DNA of 64,000 nucleotides from a phage, in sequence record PX441839.1, one strand, 5' to 3'. Both the position numbers and the translations under genes were made by a program. Positions within the stretch are counted from its first letter, which is position 1. Every line of letters begins with the position of its first letter. Shown here in pieces: positions 2,429-17,125 of the stretch. A model generated the notes under the pieces. That model ran no database searches and had not been told where the DNA came from. It worked only from the letters and a program-made list of their open reading frames with translations.

Positions 2429-2489
2429 CTCTTTCTCCTCTCCAGAATGTGTTGACTATTATACGCAACTGTTGACATATGTCAATAAA

Positions 2490-5795: not shown

Positions 5796-6904
5796 TATAT
5801 TGCTCCCACTCTCTTAAGTACACTTGAAAGGGTTGTTGGGTCATTATATTCCCTCTTCATGTATACCGATTGAAAAATAACAGATGCCCACTGACCTGCT
5901 GTAAACTTCCGATCAATACCCATGTGGTCTGTGAAATGAACACCATCAGGGAACCACATCTTATACTGATTGATTATTGTTGTCCACATTTCTTTTTCCG
6001 TTTTACACCCAGCAAGGAGCTTAAATGCGGACACTTCCCCAAATTTAATATCGAAGTTCTGATACGGCTTGACGTTATCTGCACTATCCCCAAACAACAT
6101 CTGATAGCCAAAGAACAGTTGGCCCCATCCTTTAACCTTGTTGTTGTCCATCCAAATCTCACCCATAGATTCATCGATCAACCAACACTCAGGGTGTTTC
6201 CAGGTTCTCTCGTTTGAGTCTCGCATGGAGTTGAACAGAAGAGACGGAACTTGAACTTGGTCTTTATCGAAGGATGCTACAATGTGACTGAACTTTCCAG
6301 TCTTTTTGTAATTCATATACCCCTTGTACCCAAGTATGGACAGGTAATCGTCTGCCTCGATACCGTCAATAACTACCGCCCCGTACTTACGAACAACATA
6401 ATCCCGAGTCTCTTGCAGTAGGAGTGGTCGAATAGAATCTTCTCGGTTCCCCTTATAGATCTCAGGTGTAGGCAATGCCAATCTGAAATTACCACTTCCG
6501 CCCAAAACCCCGTGACCATTTGGACATTCAAGATGTTCAAGAATTGCGTTAATCTTTATCTTCAAAAGGTGTAGGCAGTTTTCAACTGGTTCTGGTGTTT
6601 GCTTATCAAGGATTTCGAAATCATCCCTTGTCCAAGGTACAAATTTACGACCGGAAGCTAAACACTGAGCCTCTCGGTTAATATTCTGATCCTTTAACCA
6701 CCCACCAACAACATTCTTCTGACGACCCCAGAACTCGGTTTTATTTTTAAATTCCTTCTCAGCACCAGACTTCTTGTGTCGGGCAATGATAGTTCTTTTT
6801 TCTGCACCTGCCGCCGCAACATAACATGTTTGGTCAAGATCAAGTGCAACAACCACATCGTCTGTTACAATACTTTTAAGATCCTTCACTACGGGATAAC
6901 CCAT
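5795..6904 (-). CDS. 5'-3' exonuclease / flap endonuclease (FEN, RNase H-like)
   Basis: GIEADDYLSILG matches the 5'-3' exonuclease G.EADD motif; 369 aa. Confidence 0.6.
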   Translation of the reverse strand: MGYPVVKDLKSIVTDDVVVALDLDQTCYVAAAGAEKRTIIARHKKSGAEKEFKNKTEFWGRQKNVVGGWLKDQNINREAQCLASGRKFVPWTRDDFEILDKQTPEPVENCLHLLKIKINAILEHLECPNGHGVLGGSGNFRLALPTPEIYKGNREDSIRPLLLQETRDYVVRKYGAVVIDGIEADDYLSILGYKGYMNYKKTGKFSHIVASFDKDQVQVPSLLFNSMRDSNERTWKHPECWLIDESMGEIWMDNNKVKGWGQLFFGYQMLFGDSADNVKPYQNFDIKFGEVSAFKLLAGCKTEKEMWTTIINQYKMWFPDGVHFTDHMGIDRKFTAGQWASVIFQSVYMKREYNDPTTLSSVLKRVGAI

Positions 6905-9574: not shown

Positions 9575-9883
9575 TTACCAATCCACGTTACGGCCCATCA
9601 GGATATCCAGTTCGTTCAGTTGCTCAATCTGGTCTTCCAGAGCGGCGCGTTTCTTTTCTGCGGCATCTTGCTTATCGTATTCACCATTGATCAGTGTACG
9701 CAGGAATTTAGGGTCAATGTTAAGGTCTTCTTTGGTGATTGCCAAGATATCTTTCAGATCCCGTGCTGCATCTTTCTGGCGACGAATCGCATCAACACCC
9801 TCCTGAACAATGTTAGCCAGGCGCTTGCGAGTTTCGATGTCGGAAGGCAGGGTGTTGAGTAATTCCACTTTTAATTTAGCCAT
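9575..9883 (-). CDS. hypothetical coiled-coil protein
   Basis: ORF track 9575..9928; ATG (MAKLKV) preceded by AAGGAG. Confidence 0.45.
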   Translation of the reverse strand: MAKLKVELLNTLPSDIETRKRLANIVQEGVDAIRRQKDAARDLKDILAITKEDLNIDPKFLRTLINGEYDKQDAAEKKRAALEDQIEQLNELDILMGRNVDW

Positions 9884-9959
9884 TGTAGTATCTCCTTTCT
9901 CAGTTAATGTGCGAGTATTATTACTCAATATGGAACTTCTGTCAACTACTTTTTAAAAC

Positions 9960-10136
9960 TTATCGGACAAACATTCTACCTTGCTCATAGTATCCGTTAC
10001 GAATACCCCTCGGAGCAGAAATAGACTTTACAGCAGTAGCACCGCAATTGCAAGGTGCATTTTCTCTCTCAGAGATCTTTCGGTTCTTATCAAACTCTGC
10101 CCCACATTTTGGACATTTGTAAGAGTATGTTGGCAC
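9960..10136 (-). CDS. FmdB-family zinc-ribbon protein (about 58 aa)
   Basis: Not in ORF track (under 60 aa); hand translation (GTG)PTYSYKCPKCGAEFDKNRKISERENAPCNCGATAV fits the Y.Y.C..CG..F...C.CG zinc-ribbon pattern; start abuts MazG stop. Confidence 0.4.
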   Translation of the reverse strand: MPTYSYKCPKCGAEFDKNRKISERENAPCNCGATAVKSISAPRGIRNGYYEQGRMFVR

Positions 10137-10952
10137 TTAATATTTCTCCAGATTCGGTTCAAAGAAGGTGCAAGGCTTCATGATCTTACCTTTATCATCC
10201 TTAAACACAACACGGTTTCCGAACACCTCTCCACGGATACCTTTGTATCTACCTGCATGGTGCTTATTAAGAGATTCTGCCTCGATACTGATCATGTCAT
10301 CAACAGAAAGACCTCCCTTAACAACCCCATATCGAGAAGAAATGAATCCCTCTTTGAATTGTTCAATAGTTGGAATCTTTGACTCATTGGATGACAGAAC
10401 TTCCTCCAATACCGCCTCAATATCCAAATCCATATTGTGGAGAATTGTGCATATCGCACGGAAAGCGAAATGACTCTCCCCGAAACTAATGATCGATGAG
10501 GACAAAATACGAACAAGATCAACCAGAGAGTCGTGTGCCCACGTACCTGGGTCAAGGGCGATCTCTGAGTAATCAACGGCAGCATCAATTGCATCTTCAA
10601 TATTATCAAGAATCTCTGCGTCAACCTTAAGCTTCTTAAGGAAATCCCAGTAAGATACCACAACAAAAAGATCTGCGAGCGCGTCGATGGTTTCTTTCCG
10701 ATCTTTATTCAAAAGAGCATCTTTAAGCTCGTTAAGTTCCTCAACACAGAACGATTTTTGACGATCGATCATCTCTTCACTGTAGTCGTGGTTTTTTCGA
10801 GCGGTTAAGTTAAACTCGCGGACTCGTGAAAAAGCACTTTTTAAAATGTCTCGTTTTTCTTTTTTGGCAAAAGATTCAATAAAAGAATATTCTTGTGTCA
10901 CTTGATTCTCCTCTTCTTTGAAAGTAGGGCCATTATACATGACCAATTCCAT
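10137..10952 (-). CDS. MazG-like nucleoside triphosphate pyrophosphohydrolase
   Basis: VEELNELKDALLNKDRKETIDALADLFVV matches the MazG/HisE EEL.E..DA....E..D.L all-alpha NTP-PPase motif. Confidence 0.5.
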   Translation of the reverse strand: MELVMYNGPTFKEEENQVTQEYSFIESFAKKEKRDILKSAFSRVREFNLTARKNHDYSEEMIDRQKSFCVEELNELKDALLNKDRKETIDALADLFVVVSYWDFLKKLKVDAEILDNIEDAIDAAVDYSEIALDPGTWAHDSLVDLVRILSSSIISFGESHFAFRAICTILHNMDLDIEAVLEEVLSSNESKIPTIEQFKEGFISSRYGVVKGGLSVDDMISIEAESLNKHHAGRYKGIRGEVFGNRVVFKDDKGKIMKPCTFFEPNLEKY

Positions 10953-10955
10953 ATG

Positions 10956-11411
10956 TCAACGATCTTCGTAAACTTTCTTAGCTTCATCTCTCCGCAAGCT
11001 GTTACGGGAATCCCTCAATGCCTCCTTTTTCTTCTGCTCATCCTTCATACGGGCACTCACTATACTTCGAACGGTGTAACCGACAAGCTTTTCCTCTGTC
11101 CCATTCATCCAGTCGAGATCACCAACAAATATGAAGCTATCATCCCACCAATGTTGAATCCAAGTGTATTTCCCAGTTACAGGGTCGTACAAGGTGAAGT
11201 CGGTATAGCAACGACTATCTTCTTCAATCTTAACCTGGTCTTCATCACCCTGTTTGCAGTAAAAACCATCATGGATCTCGATACTACCACTCTTCACCAA
11301 TTTCACAATCTTTTTTGTAGGCTCCTTTATCTGTAACCAATCGTGGAACCATGCCATCCCACAAAACAAGCTGAACAATACAAAAACGAAAACCAGAAAC
11401 GGATCAGACAT
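10956..11411 (-). CDS. membrane protein with N-terminal transmembrane helix
   Basis: ORF track 10956..11429; FLVFVFVLFSLFCGMAWF hydrophobic segment. Confidence 0.4.
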   Translation of the reverse strand: MSDPFLVFVFVLFSLFCGMAWFHDWLQIKEPTKKIVKLVKSGSIEIHDGFYCKQGDEDQVKIEEDSRCYTDFTLYDPVTGKYTWIQHWWDDSFIFVGDLDWMNGTEEKLVGYTVRSIVSARMKDEQKKKEALRDSRNSLRRDEAKKVYEDR

Positions 11412-12783
11412 TATCATTCTCCTCTGCAATAGTCATTAACAGGTCGAGTAAAGAGTCAGAGGCTGCGATAATCTCAGGAAGAGAGTTTGCCTGGCTCTTG
11501 TCTCTACGGATCTCTACAAACTTATAGTTCAGTCGAGGAAGGAACAGTGATGCAAGCTCCTTGGTCTCAGACTTCGTAATGTCGTTAGCCTTTCCTGTTA
11601 CAATCTGCCCAATAAAATATTCCCGAGGTTTCTTACGCAGCGCGTCTGTCAAACCGGAGCCAATACCAACCTCTAAAAGTCCATCACGGGATCGGCAAAT
11701 AAGAGCACCGACCAAGTTGGGGTTCTTCTTGTGTGGAATAACATCAACAACTTCGACCTCAAAATCAAACTCATTCTTAAGTTTGATCCCTTTCTTTGTC
11801 TTATTGTCTCCCCAAGGCATAGCTGCCTCTTTGATAACAGTACCTTCTTTCTTCTGCTTACGCATCTCCACAAAGTGTTCGATGGCTTCCCGCATATTGC
11901 TAATGCGACGTCCAGTGATCATCCTGAAATTATCAGGATTGCCAACACTGTTCACAACAATATGGGCAACCAGTCGGCGGTCTTCATAACGAGCTTTGCT
12001 CTTTCTGGCGACATACTCGTCCATGTCTACGCAATCCCAAACCACCAGGCGAACAAGTGCAGGATCGATACTCTCAGGATCTTGGTTAAGGTATCCATTT
12101 CCGATCTCCCGTGGTTGTACTCCGTTAGGATATGAATTGTCGATAACCAAGGCTTCTCCATGAAGAACATAAGGTCCATTCTCACGGGCCTTAAACTTAA
12201 GGCCATTCTCCACGTCAGGTACGCACCGGAAATTTAATTCCTTGCCAGATCGTGATCGATAAATCACCTGTTCAGGCCACACCATAATGTCCGCATACAA
12301 CCCATCCATTTTCTCATCTGAAAATGCACCATCGTAGTTAAACTTACGAAGCAGATCTGGTTTGAATAGCGTGTAGCTTTGATAAGGTGGCTCAGTAATA
12401 AGGTCCTTCCAAACCTTGTTTGTAAGCGTTGTCTGGATACCACACTCAAGATCACGGTTAATAACCTTTACCAGGGTCTCAGGTTCTTCGCATAAACCAA
12501 CCAACTGATCCATGTATGCCTTAGCATCATCTCCGGTATACCGACGACACGCAATGTTGTCAATTAAGTCCTTAATCGAGTCGATCAATGGTCGATTACC
12601 ACAAACCCCGTTTGATGAACAGACACTCTTGAAATTCCGAACAAAAAAGTTCAACTCTTTCGAGTAGGCTACACGAAAAACTTCACGAAGTACATCGTTG
12701 TCTTCATTCTCACGAAGAATGGCCTCTTTCTCTTTTGTAGATCGGGTGTTGGACAGCTTGTTTAAAATTTCAGTTACAGTCAT
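11404..12783 (-). CDS. ATP-dependent DNA ligase (T4-type)
   Basis: MTVTEILNKLSNTRSTKEKEAILRENEDNDVLREVF aligns with T4 ligase MILKILNEIASIGSTKQKQAILEKNKDNELLKRVY; KMDG adenylation lysine motif; start refined from track 12822. Confidence 0.7.
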   Translation of the reverse strand: MTVTEILNKLSNTRSTKEKEAILRENEDNDVLREVFRVAYSKELNFFVRNFKSVCSSNGVCGNRPLIDSIKDLIDNIACRRYTGDDAKAYMDQLVGLCEEPETLVKVINRDLECGIQTTLTNKVWKDLITEPPYQSYTLFKPDLLRKFNYDGAFSDEKMDGLYADIMVWPEQVIYRSRSGKELNFRCVPDVENGLKFKARENGPYVLHGEALVIDNSYPNGVQPREIGNGYLNQDPESIDPALVRLVVWDCVDMDEYVARKSKARYEDRRLVAHIVVNSVGNPDNFRMITGRRISNMREAIEHFVEMRKQKKEGTVIKEAAMPWGDNKTKKGIKLKNEFDFEVEVVDVIPHKKNPNLVGALICRSRDGLLEVGIGSGLTDALRKKPREYFIGQIVTGKANDITKSETKELASLFLPRLNYKFVEIRRDKSQANSLPEIIAASDSLLDLLMTIAEENDNV

Positions 12784-12961
12784 TCGTATCTCCTTTTGGT
12801 GGAATATTGCCGCTGTTGTCAATTGTTACAAAATCTCCCCTTGTTGTCCAGCAAATTTCACAAACCTCCGCACACAAGGTTATACTCCCATACATGCCCA
12901 CACTCTGCTTCGTATAAGTAAAACTCTCTGTATCTTCCTCACAGATATAACAATATGTCAT
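12770..12961 (-). CDS. small Cys-rich protein (63 aa)
   Basis: ORF track; CYICEE...CAEVCEIC. Confidence 0.3.
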   Translation of the reverse strand: MTYCYICEEDTESFTYTKQSVGMYGSITLCAEVCEICWTTRGDFVTIDNSGNIPPKGDTNDCN

Positions 12962-13052
12962 TAACCTCTCCTCAGTGCAGTAACTGTAAGTATAGCAACT
13001 ATCGCACCACCTAATGTAAGAAACATTGCCAAAAACTTGACAGCATCAACAA

Positions 13053-13529
13053 CTATTTCCATTTCTCTTTCAGAACCTCTCTGATCCTTTCAAATTCCTC
13101 AACGATCCAGTCAAACTGAGGAAGTTCTATAACTTTTGCATTGTCAGGTGAGCCATAGTAGTAATAATGGGTAAATGGAAGTTCAGATTTCCACAACTCC
13201 TCCACTATGTCTCTGTTCTGCCGAAGCTTACATCGTATAGCCTCAAGTATGACTTCCTTGTCTGAATCTGTCAACCCCTCTTTGTCGATTCTTTCGTGTT
13301 TAAGGCGATTGCCATACTTCTTGGCCTCAAAACCTTTCATTGTCCTAAGCTCATAGTGCTTACAACCTGTCAGGTAAAAATACCAAAATCCCTCCATACA
13401 CTTAAATGATCCGTACCCAGGGACGGTAAAATCCCTGTCGTACAAGTTTGTCAGCATCCTTCCAAGTTTTGTTGCTCCCTTGGTGTAGATGTTGATGTGG
13501 TTGTTTCCGTCATCTTCTGGCGAGAACAC
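13053..13529 (-). CDS. hypothetical protein (158 aa)
   Basis: ORF track. Confidence 0.45.
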   Translation of the reverse strand: MFSPEDDGNNHINIYTKGATKLGRMLTNLYDRDFTVPGYGSFKCMEGFWYFYLTGCKHYELRTMKGFEAKKYGNRLKHERIDKEGLTDSDKEVILEAIRCKLRQNRDIVEELWKSELPFTHYYYYGSPDNAKVIELPQFDWIVEEFERIREVLKEKWK

Positions 13530-14579: not shown

Positions 14580-14792
14580 TTACAGAGCTTCCTGTGCAGT
14601 CGTCCCTTCCTTACATTCAGGACAATACCATACCCCAAGACCGGGGTGTTCTGGATCTTCCACAAAATTGTCAGGTTTCTCATGTAAGACGATTGATTGT
14701 CCAATCGCCGCACCTGGTATTTTGTAGAAGCAGATATGAGGACCAACACCGTAATGTGGGTACTCCCCATCTTTGCATGTCTCACACATCAA
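14580..14792 (-). CDS. zinc-ribbon protein (70 aa)
   Basis: CETC...CPEC paired CxxC motifs; preferred over overlapping 14453..14785 frame. Confidence 0.4.
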   Translation of the reverse strand: MMCETCKDGEYPHYGVGPHICFYKIPGAAIGQSIVLHEKPDNFVEDPEHPGLGVWYCPECKEGTTAQEAL

Positions 14793-15392: not shown

Positions 15393-15809
15393 ATGATTTT
15401 TCAGTTTGGTAACAGTTCAGTGGAGATTTCAGAAGATAGCTTCATGCAGATTCCTACCCACTGGGTAATGAACTTAAGCGGAGATGACTTAAAGAGGGCT
15501 TGCCTTCTTCGGTGGAGGTTCACATTCTTTGCTGATACGGGACTTTTCCCAGATGCATCCCTATGCTTCTATGAGTCTCAGCAGTCATTGTGTGACCTGT
15601 TTGGGATGTCAAAGTCTAGCCGGACAAAGGTGAGTGCTTGTCTAAAGAGGTTGGAGGCTGCTGGGGTAATATTTATACGCAGGGGCAAGTCAAGGGAGAG
15701 TGGGGAGTTGAAGCCACGGCATTACATTGTCCCCAATGACTCACTGCTTATTGAGAAGTACGGTATACGACCAGACTTGTGGGATGATAAGGAAATAATT
15801 GAAAAGTAA
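15393..15809 (+). CDS. hypothetical protein, possible winged-helix DNA-binding
   Basis: ORF track 15381 is a GTG; ATG at 15393 follows GGAGGTGA. Confidence 0.45.
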   Translation: MIFQFGNSSVEISEDSFMQIPTHWVMNLSGDDLKRACLLRWRFTFFADTGLFPDASLCFYESQQSLCDLFGMSKSSRTKVSACLKRLEAAGVIFIRRGKSRESGELKPRHYIVPNDSLLIEKYGIRPDLWDDKEIIEK

Positions 15810-15867: not shown

Positions 15868-16158
15868 ATGAATATTCAAGAACAGGTTAAAATAACTTTC
15901 GAAGACCTTGTGGAACTACATAAGAAACGAAAATATCAAAAGGGCCGAGAAAAGAAGGCAATGGAGGATGTGGTATTCTTTTCTAAAGATGGTCATGGAC
16001 TTTCCAAGAAAGAGGCAAACAGGAAGGTTGATGCAGCGTGGGCTACACAACGGGACGCTGTGAACATTGTGTCAGGTATTGATAAGCAGATTGAATATGA
16101 ACTGAATGCCATAGGGCAGATTATCAACTTTGTTGCGGAAAAGGAGAGTGATAAATGA
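15868..16158 (+). CDS. hypothetical protein
   Basis: ORF track 15799..16158; ATG (MNIQEQ) after GAGAGGAGAG. Confidence 0.4.
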   Translation: MNIQEQVKITFEDLVELHKKRKYQKGREKKAMEDVVFFSKDGHGLSKKEANRKVDAAWATQRDAVNIVSGIDKQIEYELNAIGQIINFVAEKESDK

Positions 16159-17069
16159 TTTCTTTACATCTCGATAACTTTAAAAGGGTTAAGCTTGAGT
16201 TTATGACGTTCAGCGGTGGAGAGCGTAACGTCCGTATAGGTGGACTGGATGTCGAAAAAGATGGTGTTCTTGAGTTTGCTGGATATGGGGAGGTTGACCA
16301 TCTCTCTCAACGTAAGTGGGAAAATTATCGTGTAACAGCACATATTCAAAGCTCAGATGATATCATGGATCTGTTACTTCTAAAGGATGCCATTGATCGT
16401 GTGGGCAATGGATGTTTGCGACGTGTATACTCAATCCTGCATCTTCCGTATCTCCCATATGCTCGACAAGACCGTGCAATGGTAAACGGGGAGGCGATCT
16501 CTGTTGTCGTTATGGCAAACCTGATTAACTCTCTTGAGTTTGATGCCGTGTGGATTGATGACCCGCATTCTGATGTTGGTCCGTCGCATATAAAAAACGC
16601 CGTAATTACCCCTCAGCATGAGCTTTTGCTGGACATGTGTAACAAAGATGATGTTCTTTCCGATGGAACAATCATTGTTGCACCTGATGCAGGTGCCATG
16701 AAAAAGGCAAGCAAGTTGGCTGAACTCGCTGATTTACCTCTCGGGACTGGTGGTAAACACAGGGATGTCAAGACAGGTAAGATTACAGGAACAACTTACA
16801 CAGGGCCAGATGTAAACGGTAAACGATGCCTGTTGGTAGACGATATTGCGGATGGCGCTGCCACATTTGTGTGTCTTGCAGAGAAACTAAAATCCCTGGG
16901 TGCAAAACAGGTTGATCTGTATGTAACGCACGGCATTTTCTCAAAAGGGATTGATGACCTTGAGCATATCGATAAGATTTATTCGGCATACCCCTGGAGA
17001 AAGAACGTTAAGTGGAAAAATGGAAAAGGTAAGCTAAATACGGTTGACATCGTAAGCTGGTTCGAGTAA
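16155..17069 (+). CDS. ribose-phosphate pyrophosphokinase (PRPP synthetase)-like enzyme
   Basis: YARQDR and LLVDDIADGAAT match Prs catalytic and PRPP-binding motifs; 304 aa; ATGA overlap with upstream gene. Confidence 0.65.
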   Translation: MISLHLDNFKRVKLEFMTFSGGERNVRIGGLDVEKDGVLEFAGYGEVDHLSQRKWENYRVTAHIQSSDDIMDLLLLKDAIDRVGNGCLRRVYSILHLPYLPYARQDRAMVNGEAISVVVMANLINSLEFDAVWIDDPHSDVGPSHIKNAVITPQHELLLDMCNKDDVLSDGTIIVAPDAGAMKKASKLAELADLPLGTGGKHRDVKTGKITGTTYTGPDVNGKRCLLVDDIADGAATFVCLAEKLKSLGAKQVDLYVTHGIFSKGIDDLEHIDKIYSAYPWRKNVKWKNGKGKLNTVDIVSWFE

Positions 17070-17125
17070 AGTACATTTTATCGGGAGGCGTGTTGCCTCC
17101 CACATACAACGAAGGAGAGTTACAT

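Follow-up and report, generated by a model that had tools for sequence, protein, structure and literature searches.

The window considered here is a stretch of 64,000 nucleotides (nt) of phage DNA (sequence record PX441839.1), on the minus strand of which a short open reading frame (ORF) of 58 codons, at 9960..10136, follows directly on a gene resembling MazG. This ORF is a genuine gene under purifying selection, and its sequence places it in a known family, as a member of the gp39.2/NwgI branch of the FmdB zinc ribbons. Taking all parts together, we lean towards a proposal in which the gene is the second cistron of an early unit and its product, of 58 amino acids (aa), is a zinc ribbon of the gp39.2 type that modulates GroEL.

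In the region around the ORF the closest relative is Salmonella phage SSBI34 (Vequintavirinae, 141 kb), with 95.6% nt identity; the Certrevirus phages of Cronobacter, Pectobacterium, Enterobacter and Klebsiella are more remote relatives. The orthologous 177 nt were taken from 12 Vequintavirinae genomes, giving 13 sequences together with the window, and these align without a single gap. An earlier note on this DNA had named conservation in related phages as a check on the ORF, and the frame has indeed been kept in all 13. Variable columns at codon positions 1, 2 and 3 number 23, 15 and 47 respectively, and the ratio of non-synonymous to synonymous substitution rates (dN/dS, Nei-Gojobori) lies at 0.04-0.25 where computable, dS being mostly above 1 or saturated. 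When the 58-aa product was compared with phage records, tblastn matches were found in 1,091, and hundreds of T4-like phages, besides the 13, have kept the frame intact. A plus-strand antisense ORF that overlaps the gene (9981..10382, 133 aa) and is open in relatives was rejected as an artefact because variation concentrates at the third positions of the minus-strand frame.

The gene is held to be real because of hidden Markov model (HMM) matches above their cut-offs, conservation, low dN/dS and a conserved Shine-Dalgarno sequence. A chance ORF without a product could be suspected, as the ORF is short, starts with GTG and has no annotation in SSBI34, CR8 or PcCB7V; with 146 ORFs of at least 30 aa in the 13 kb around it, a 58-codon ORF is by itself not above chance. 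The pattern of conservation, however, effectively refutes this explanation, and with HMM E-values of 1e-11 to 1e-13, dN/dS that low against saturated dS, a frame intact across so many phages and a Shine-Dalgarno sequence that has been retained, its probability is close to nil.

The gene begins at GTG 10136..10134 and ends at TAA 9962..9960, the minus strand read from 10136 to 9960 opening with GTG CCA ACA TAC TCT TAC AAA TGT CCA AAA TGT, and the 58-aa product is MPTYSYKCPKCGAEFDKNRKISERENAPCNCGATAVKSISAPRGIRNGYYEQGRMFVR. The stop codon of the upstream 271-aa ORF (TAA 10139..10137) abuts the GTG, and in-frame extension beyond the GTG is impossible; the description in the earlier note, of a 58-codon ORF with a GTG start right after the stop of a MazG-like gene, is accurate in sequence, coordinates and translation. 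A Shine-Dalgarno GGAG (10146..10149, minus strand) lies 9 nt before the GTG, within the 3' end of the upstream gene, and CTGGAG is kept 9-11 nt before the start in 13 of 13 Vequintavirinae phages, despite the existence of two forms of the upstream gene. Across the same phages the upstream stop and the zinc-ribbon start overlap by 1 nt at one extreme and are 3 nt apart at the other. Ten of the phages begin the gene with ATG, the window and SSBI34 with GTG, and PcCB7V with ATT.

The product passes both curated HMM cut-offs for the FmdB family, so that the label "FmdB-like" given in the earlier note holds: it matches TIGR02605 (CxxC_CxxC_SSSS) with 51.3 bits (cut-off 31.3, E 8.9e-14) and PF09723 (Zn_ribbon_8) with 44.5 bits (gathering cut-off (GA) 34.4, E 1.5e-11), and it also matches PHROG 1076 and PHROG 385, both of which are labelled transcription regulation. 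Its N-terminus, MPTYSYKC-PK-C followed by C-N-C, fits the FmdB signature MPxY(E/D/S)YxC with two Cys pairs. The first pair is canonical and the second is CxC, one residue shorter than CxxC, a form that is found in other family members too (P0055 and P0059).

Within the family the closest ties are with the gp39.2 proteins of T4-like phages. The window protein is 49-51% identical to RB49 gp39.2 (BLASTP 51% over 53 residues, E 3e-16) and 40-43% identical to T4 Gp39.2 (BLASTP 43%), and it is closer to RB49 gp39.2 (49%) than T4 gp39.2 is to RB49 (42%). For about 1,059 records out of the 1,091 matched by tblastn, the best match is below 60% identity, and among the matches listed below that value nearly all are T4-like Straboviridae, at the position of gene 39.2. 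The strong matches come mainly from phages of Enterobacterales, the order that includes every host genus listed, and Streptomyces phages give just a few weak ones. An HMM of the gp39.2 type, built from ten T4/RB49-type proteins only, scores the window protein at 63.2 bits, with 52-62 for its Vequintavirinae counterparts and 20-31 for the FmdB proteins of bacteria. The window protein and the T4-like proteins have in common the motifs MPxYxYxC, (R/K)KISER(E/D) and SAP(R/K)..(N/G)G(Y/F)Y, of which the second, after the first knuckle, and the third, near the C-terminus, are not found in bacterial FmdB proteins. All are single-domain proteins of similar length, 57-59 aa in the subfamily, with 58 in the window, 58 in T4, 57 in RB49 and 58 in Pet-CM3-4. 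In T4-like phages gp39.2 is encoded near topoisomerase gene 39, which is not the position of the gene in the window; a different gene position is to be expected for another phage subfamily and is not decisive. Judged on these similarities, the gene can be regarded as an orthologue-grade relative of gene 39.2 of T4 and RB49. The gp39.2 type is also represented on a Klebsiella-associated contig (P0022, 68 aa; L024:4001-4207) by a protein that is 60-62% identical to that of the window and has the CxxH first knuckle of RB49. This contig, of approximately 25 kb, is phage-like and carries a lambda-type GpA terminase gene, so that the gp39.2 family occurs in a different type of phage genome as well.

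The putative zinc ligands of the window protein are C8, C11, C29 and C31 (CxxC...CxC), and it is predicted to bind zinc through these four residues. The CxC second knuckle is present in all Vequintavirinae orthologues and falls one residue short of the CPxC seen in T4-like proteins. The knuckles vary more widely, being CxxC and CxC in the window, Cx4C and CxxC in T4 and CxxH and CxxC in RB49, with Cx4C again in the Karamvirus Pet-CM3-4, and knuckle spacing is generally loose across the gp39.2 subfamily. An AlphaFold2 model made from an alignment of 61 sequences and without metal has a mean predicted local distance difference test (pLDDT) score of 67.9, with strands at 3-7, 14-18 and 34-37. A Foldseek search of the PDB with this model returned nothing at E <= 0.001; the top matches, none of them significant (best E 0.09), were zinc ribbons, among them RpoP/Rpb12, ribosomal zinc-ribbon proteins and RbpA. 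Searching PDB sequences with a profile of the family revealed no solved homologue. Arrays of C2H2 zinc fingers in the PDB were matched only via a short resemblance to YKCPECGKSF and were dismissed as non-homologous.

The earlier note had called the gene unannotated, which is true of the GenBank annotations of SSBI34, PcCB7V and CR8 and untrue of other relatives: the RefSeq records of CR3, CR9, PBES 02 and phiTE name it "FmdB-like transcriptional regulator", UPEC06 has "zinc ribbon domain-containing protein", others also carry it, and the phiTE record mentions the similarity of the product to RB49 gp39.2. The gene has been missed in some records, yet it is already known. In SSBI34 a feature-free gap of 640 bp spans both the zinc-ribbon gene and the gene for a DsbA-like regulator that comes after it. 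The T4 entries themselves are uneven, with gp39.2 in RefSeq NC_000866 (L004:5702-5839) being 45 aa long, with G25, G29 and a premature stop, and that in MZ375356 (L006:801-977) being 58 aa long, with E25 and D29, matching the form in the literature; the RefSeq entry apparently retains old errors or differences in sequence.

Read 5' to 3' on the minus strand, the genes in this part of the window are those for DNA ligase, a small membrane protein, the MazG-type protein, the zinc ribbon and the DsbA-like regulator. A sigma-70 consensus promoter, TTGACA-N16-TATAAT with 12 of 12 positions matched (10932..10959, minus strand), is predicted to drive the MazG-type and zinc-ribbon pair. In the 64 kb this perfect sequence is observed twice against 0.04 times expected, and a 12/12 promoter stands just upstream of the MazG-type gene in 13 of 13 phages. 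The other perfect copy in the window, at 2458..2485 (minus strand), is probably another strong early promoter. Beyond the zinc-ribbon gene there is a second promoter-like site, TTGACA-N17-AATAAT (11/12; 9917..9945, minus strand), which starts 15 nt past the stop codon and matches 11/12 in SSBI34 as in the window, its equivalents being 11/12 in CR3, CR8 and KaOmega and 10/12 in POP15. Since there is a perfect promoter before the pair and a promoter-like site after it, the two genes make up a conserved bicistronic unit of early type.

The upstream member of this unit (10137..10901, minus strand) encodes a protein of the MazG/PRA-PH type, resembling the all-alpha nucleoside triphosphate (NTP) pyrophosphohydrolases. 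It matches PF01503 (PRA-PH) with 26.6 bits (GA 21.3) and phrog_671, "nucleotide pyrophosphohydrolase", with E 4.3e-24, whilst PF03819 (MazG) is not matched and PF12643 (MazG-like) reaches just 11.2 bits (GA 27). EExxE...ExxD is the metal-binding motif of the MazG superfamily, carried on adjacent helices, and the protein has VEELNEL...KETIDALADL, in which E54, E55, E58, E70, D73 and D77 (numbering of the 254-aa form) are invariant in four long-form homologues; "MazG-like", as the earlier note had it, is a fair description. A single-sequence AlphaFold2 model was mostly helical and, at pLDDT 48.7, too poor for a fold search, and a PDB profile search gave nothing significant. As mechanically called the ORF begins at ATG 10952 and has 271 aa. 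The true start is probably GTG 10901 (254 aa), which is preceded by GAGGAG, because the promoter overlaps the first two ATGs of the longer ORF; this start also fits the similarity with the W70 homologue, which begins at residue 19. The SSBI34 annotation of the gene starts within the promoter.

The gene in this upstream position exists in two forms, a short one encoding a true MazG of 120 aa (PF03819) in Certrevirus (L010:1139-1501, L003:2639-3001) and a long one encoding a PRA-PH-like protein of 242-271 aa in the window, SSBI34, W70/UPEC06 (L013:760-1497) and one metagenomic contig. Between the two forms there is no BLASTP similarity (window against CR9 MazG) and the hhalign probability is 0.1, from alignments that are shallow and leave room for a common superfamily. 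The promoter, the terminal ...LE.. codons that bear the GGAG and the zinc-ribbon gene are nevertheless kept across both forms. In Pet-CM3-4, a T4-like phage of Cronobacter (Karamvirus), there is likewise a MazG-like gene that overlaps the 39.2 homologue; BLASTP of the window's upstream protein against the Pet-CM3-4 MazG found nothing. Elsewhere the upstream neighbour of 39.2 is no MazG, being goF in T4, dexA in RB49, a motB.2-like gene in T4-like phages of Klebsiella and Enterobacter and a gene of 46 aa on the P0022 contig. The coupling to MazG in the earlier note is borne out as far as adjacency in 13 of 13 Vequintavirinae goes, and translational coupling is plausible, but the association is not obligate, as the T4, RB49 and Klebsiella/Enterobacter T4-like genomes show. 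We take the linkage to be a gene order particular to the lineage, with a small chance that it means something functionally.

By analogy with its T4 homologue, modulation of GroEL/GroES would be the most likely function of the window protein. T4 Gp39.2 (NwgI), the only characterised member of the group, is described by its discoverer as a subtle modulator of GroES/GroEL; it moves GroEL towards an open conformation able to bind co-chaperonins of the GroES type, and T4 from which 39.2 has been deleted fails to grow on certain groEL mutants of the host (PMC5153855, PMC4396842). Both papers cite Ang & Georgopoulos 2012 (Genetics 190:989) for Gp39.2. In the phage of the window, a myovirus of the Vequintavirinae, host RNA polymerase would initiate at the perfect sigma-70 promoter (10959..10932), the MazG/PRA-PH-type gene would be transcribed first and the 58-codon gene as the last cistron, and the latter would be translated from the GTG abutting the upstream stop with the aid of the conserved GGAG. 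The product may then bind host GroEL and shift the chaperonin to the open state that accepts GroES, the effect being that the folding capacity of the host would be tuned for phage proteins and the range of permissive hosts would be wider. Both the early timing of expression and GroEL as the target are here read from sequence. The homologues in RB69, RB43 and RB49 reportedly act on GroEL as the T4 protein does. As the window protein lies inside the divergence of the RB-type and T4 proteins reported as tested and has the motifs of the subfamily, the same mechanism is the one best supported for it. The expectation in the earlier note that such mini zinc ribbons are often regulators or small inhibitors was too vague, and missed the gp39.2 identity with the chaperonin phenotype of the T4 member.

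Several points weigh against a role in modulating GroEL. Over its 58 residues the protein is just 40-51% identical to the tested ones, the members in the window, T4 and RB49 have different zinc knuckles, and the genomic context differs as well, the T4-like gene being near topoisomerase gene 39 and the one in the window coming after a MazG-type gene. For the Vequintavirinae members the functional assignment would be one by homology. Furthermore, the structural model is of moderate confidence (pLDDT 68) and has no significant fold match, and no convincing GroES/gp31-like gene was found in the window by tblastn with an E. coli GroES query. The one weak match, at 15666..15800 (E 0.004), falls within a 142-aa ORF whose function is unknown and was judged spurious.

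The foremost alternative is that the protein is a nucleic-acid-binding regulator of transcription or translation, acting early on phage or host gene expression, which would agree with the PHROG labels, with the product name in RefSeq relatives, with the fact that zinc ribbons often bind nucleic acids or RNA polymerase (RpoP and RbpA being among the weak fold matches) and with the predicted DsbA-like transcriptional regulator encoded next downstream. We consider it rather unlikely: those fold matches are not significant, the name FmdB goes back to fmdB, a putative regulatory gene of the Methylophilus formamidase locus, and we know of no demonstration of DNA binding for the fmdB product or for any phage member. 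It is also possible that the protein inhibits or modulates another host protein, such as a defence or metabolic factor, and that GroEL is not the relevant target here. The early-type location among many small ORFs of unknown function, the divergence from the tested proteins and the altered zinc knuckles would suit this, and overproduced Gp39.2 is said to be toxic to the host, which would be compatible with other targets. Yet the motifs outside the zinc ligands are kept between the Vequintavirinae and T4-like proteins, which argues for a common interaction surface, and the strong matches come mainly from phages whose hosts, the Enterobacterales, have a highly conserved GroEL; a different target thus seems decidedly unlikely. 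The reading as a nucleic-acid-binding regulator has further to contend with the phenotype of T4 Gp39.2, the sole phage member described as tested, which concerns the chaperonin (PMC5153855, PMC4396842).

A further reading is that the zinc ribbon works in one module with the MazG-type NTP pyrophosphohydrolase, either as its small subunit or by activating or inhibiting it. The adjacency, the stop/start coupling and the single perfect promoter in 13 of 13 Vequintavirinae would be expected of such a partner, as would a pairing that persists across two upstream forms with no detectable similarity and the recurrence of the overlap in Pet-CM3-4. It would seem improbable nonetheless, given that the homologues of T4, RB49, the Klebsiella/Enterobacter T4-like phages and the P0022 contig have no MazG neighbour, that adjacency in compact early regions of phages is weak evidence of interaction, and that T4 Gp39.2 is reported to act alone (PMC5153855). 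We are similarly doubtful that selection has kept the MazG-type gene and the gp39.2-type zinc-ribbon gene together as a two-component module, beyond their being mere neighbours; if it has, hydrolysis of nucleotides or alarmones would be linked by the zinc ribbon to the chaperonin or to some other function of the host, or the pyrophosphohydrolase itself would be under its direct regulation. Modulation of GroEL is the preferred reading.

Three other small ORFs with paired cysteines had been pointed out in the earlier note as similar to the zinc ribbon. All three exist and are real genes or probably so, but the resemblance goes no further than the Cys pattern, as they belong to different PHROGs or to none, and the four small Cys-pair proteins are not homologous to one another. 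At 14580..14789 (minus strand; PHROG 5457, function unknown) a gene of 69 aa starts at a conserved ATG, 14789, with a Shine-Dalgarno GGAG, and not at TTG 14792 as had been supposed; it has conserved Cys2, Cys5, Cys20, Cys56 and Cys59, is present in 21 phage records with a dN/dS of 0.08 against KaOmega, and is unannotated in CR3, POP15 and KaOmega. The coordinates 12770..12961 (minus strand) were given correctly, for an ORFan of 63 aa (CxxC...CxxxCxxC, ATG start, Shine-Dalgarno GAGGAG) that is found in the window and SSBI34 only. The SSBI34 copy was the sole match in word-indexed and exhaustive HMMER searches of 1.84 billion representatives, and it differs by 6 nt, all at third positions and synonymous; the ORFan is probably a real gene. 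A 33-codon ORF at 12961..13062 (minus strand), which encodes a hydrophobic, single-pass-like peptide (MEIVVDAVKFLAMFLTLGGAIVAILTVTALRRG) with no Pfam match, overlaps its start in an ATGA arrangement. Finally, the gene at 19956..20138 (plus strand; PHROG 8931) has a conserved CxxC...CxxC core, occurs in 15 records with a dN/dS of 0.16-0.37 and is unannotated in SSBI34 and CR3; its frame had been given correctly, and its start is ambiguous between 19956, with the best Shine-Dalgarno sequence, 19965 and 19980, an ATG conserved in relatives. In six frames the window contains nine ORFs of 40-100 aa with two Cys pairs against 2.4 +/- 1.4 in random Markov-1 sequence, and the four that had been flagged are the protein-like ones, all within the early region at 9.9-20.2 kb.

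Downstream of the zinc-ribbon gene, the promoter-like site at 9917..9945 would mark the start of the next unit, that of the DsbA-like "transcriptional regulator" (9575..9884, minus strand; phrog_639, E 2.6e-20). The likely start of this gene is ATG 9884 and not TTG 9928, and it is unannotated in SSBI34 (L001 ~6076..6385). In the window the promoter is all that follows the zinc-ribbon gene, with no insert. An HNH homing endonuclease gene overlaps the zinc-ribbon stop in PBES 02, phiTE and PcCB7V (L011, L012, L015:1674-2177), and the gene directly after the zinc ribbon is one of 336 nt in CR9/F1M1E (L003:3186-3521) and of 345 nt in W70/UPEC06 (L013:1686-2030).

Elsewhere in the window, the plus strand carries ten tRNA genes (Thr, Met, Tyr, Ser, Asn, Asp, Ile, Pro, Gln and Gly) at 20173..22361, the second of which is Met here and Cys in CR3 and KaOmega, and a 171-aa ORF (20451..20966) lies between tRNA-Met and tRNA-Tyr, where SSBI34 annotates an HNH endonuclease. 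At 16155..18916, also on the plus strand, the SSBI34 annotation has a gene resembling ribose-phosphate diphosphokinase followed by one of approximately 600 aa for nicotinate phosphoribosyltransferase, and these look like a phage pair for the salvage of nicotinamide adenine dinucleotide (NAD).

The findings extend the T4 Gp39.2/NwgI family from T4-like phages into the Vequintavirinae, and gp39.2 membership means that the name "FmdB-like transcriptional regulator" probably misleads when given to these proteins of phages. Should the tuning of GroEL be true, many large lytic phages of Enterobacterales would carry a chaperonin modulator of 58 residues, and this would be relevant to host-range engineering of therapeutic phages. 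To a specialist the findings will be unsurprising, and their practical value is in correcting annotation, as several relatives miss the zinc-ribbon gene or other mini-genes.

The systems with which the window protein can be compared range from bacterial proteins to its orthologues in related phages. Bacterial FmdB proteins (for example P0062, P0064 and P0066) have the same N-terminal zinc-ribbon core, MPxYxYxC...CxxC, but F.VRQ.F(S/K)D replaces RKISERE and their Ser/Pro/Ala-rich tails are longer; their function is, to our knowledge, essentially unknown. T4 Gp39.2 (NwgI) is like the window protein in being a single zinc-ribbon domain of 58 aa with the N-terminal, KISER(E/D) and C-terminal motifs, and in being encoded by a small gene amid a non-structural cluster of a large lytic myovirus of Enterobacterales. 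It differs in its knuckles, which are Cx4C and CPDC in T4 and CPKC and CNC in the window, and in its setting, as T4 39.2 lies between goF and 39.1/39 with no MazG neighbour, whereas the gene in the window follows one of the MazG type. The closest homologue in a named phage genome outside the Vequintavirinae is RB49 gp39.2 (NP_891578, "FmdB-like transcriptional regulator"), whose RKISERE and APRGI.GGYY recur near-verbatim in the window protein, whilst its knuckles are CxxH and CPEC as against CxxC and CNC, and its gene is downstream of dexA and upstream of gene 39. Closer still are the Certrevirus orthologues, CR3 gp244, CR9 gp261, PBES 02 ADU18_0083 and phiTE_184, which align without gaps and are 78-86% identical to the window protein. 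In these the upstream gene encodes the 120-aa true MazG (PF03819) and not a PRA-PH-like protein of 254-271 aa, the zinc-ribbon gene starts with ATG in a 1-nt overlap (TAATG) where the window has TAA and then GTG, and some have an HNH endonuclease or other gene inserted just downstream; the CxxC...CxC ligands, the position after a MazG-type gene and the promoter layout are as in the window.

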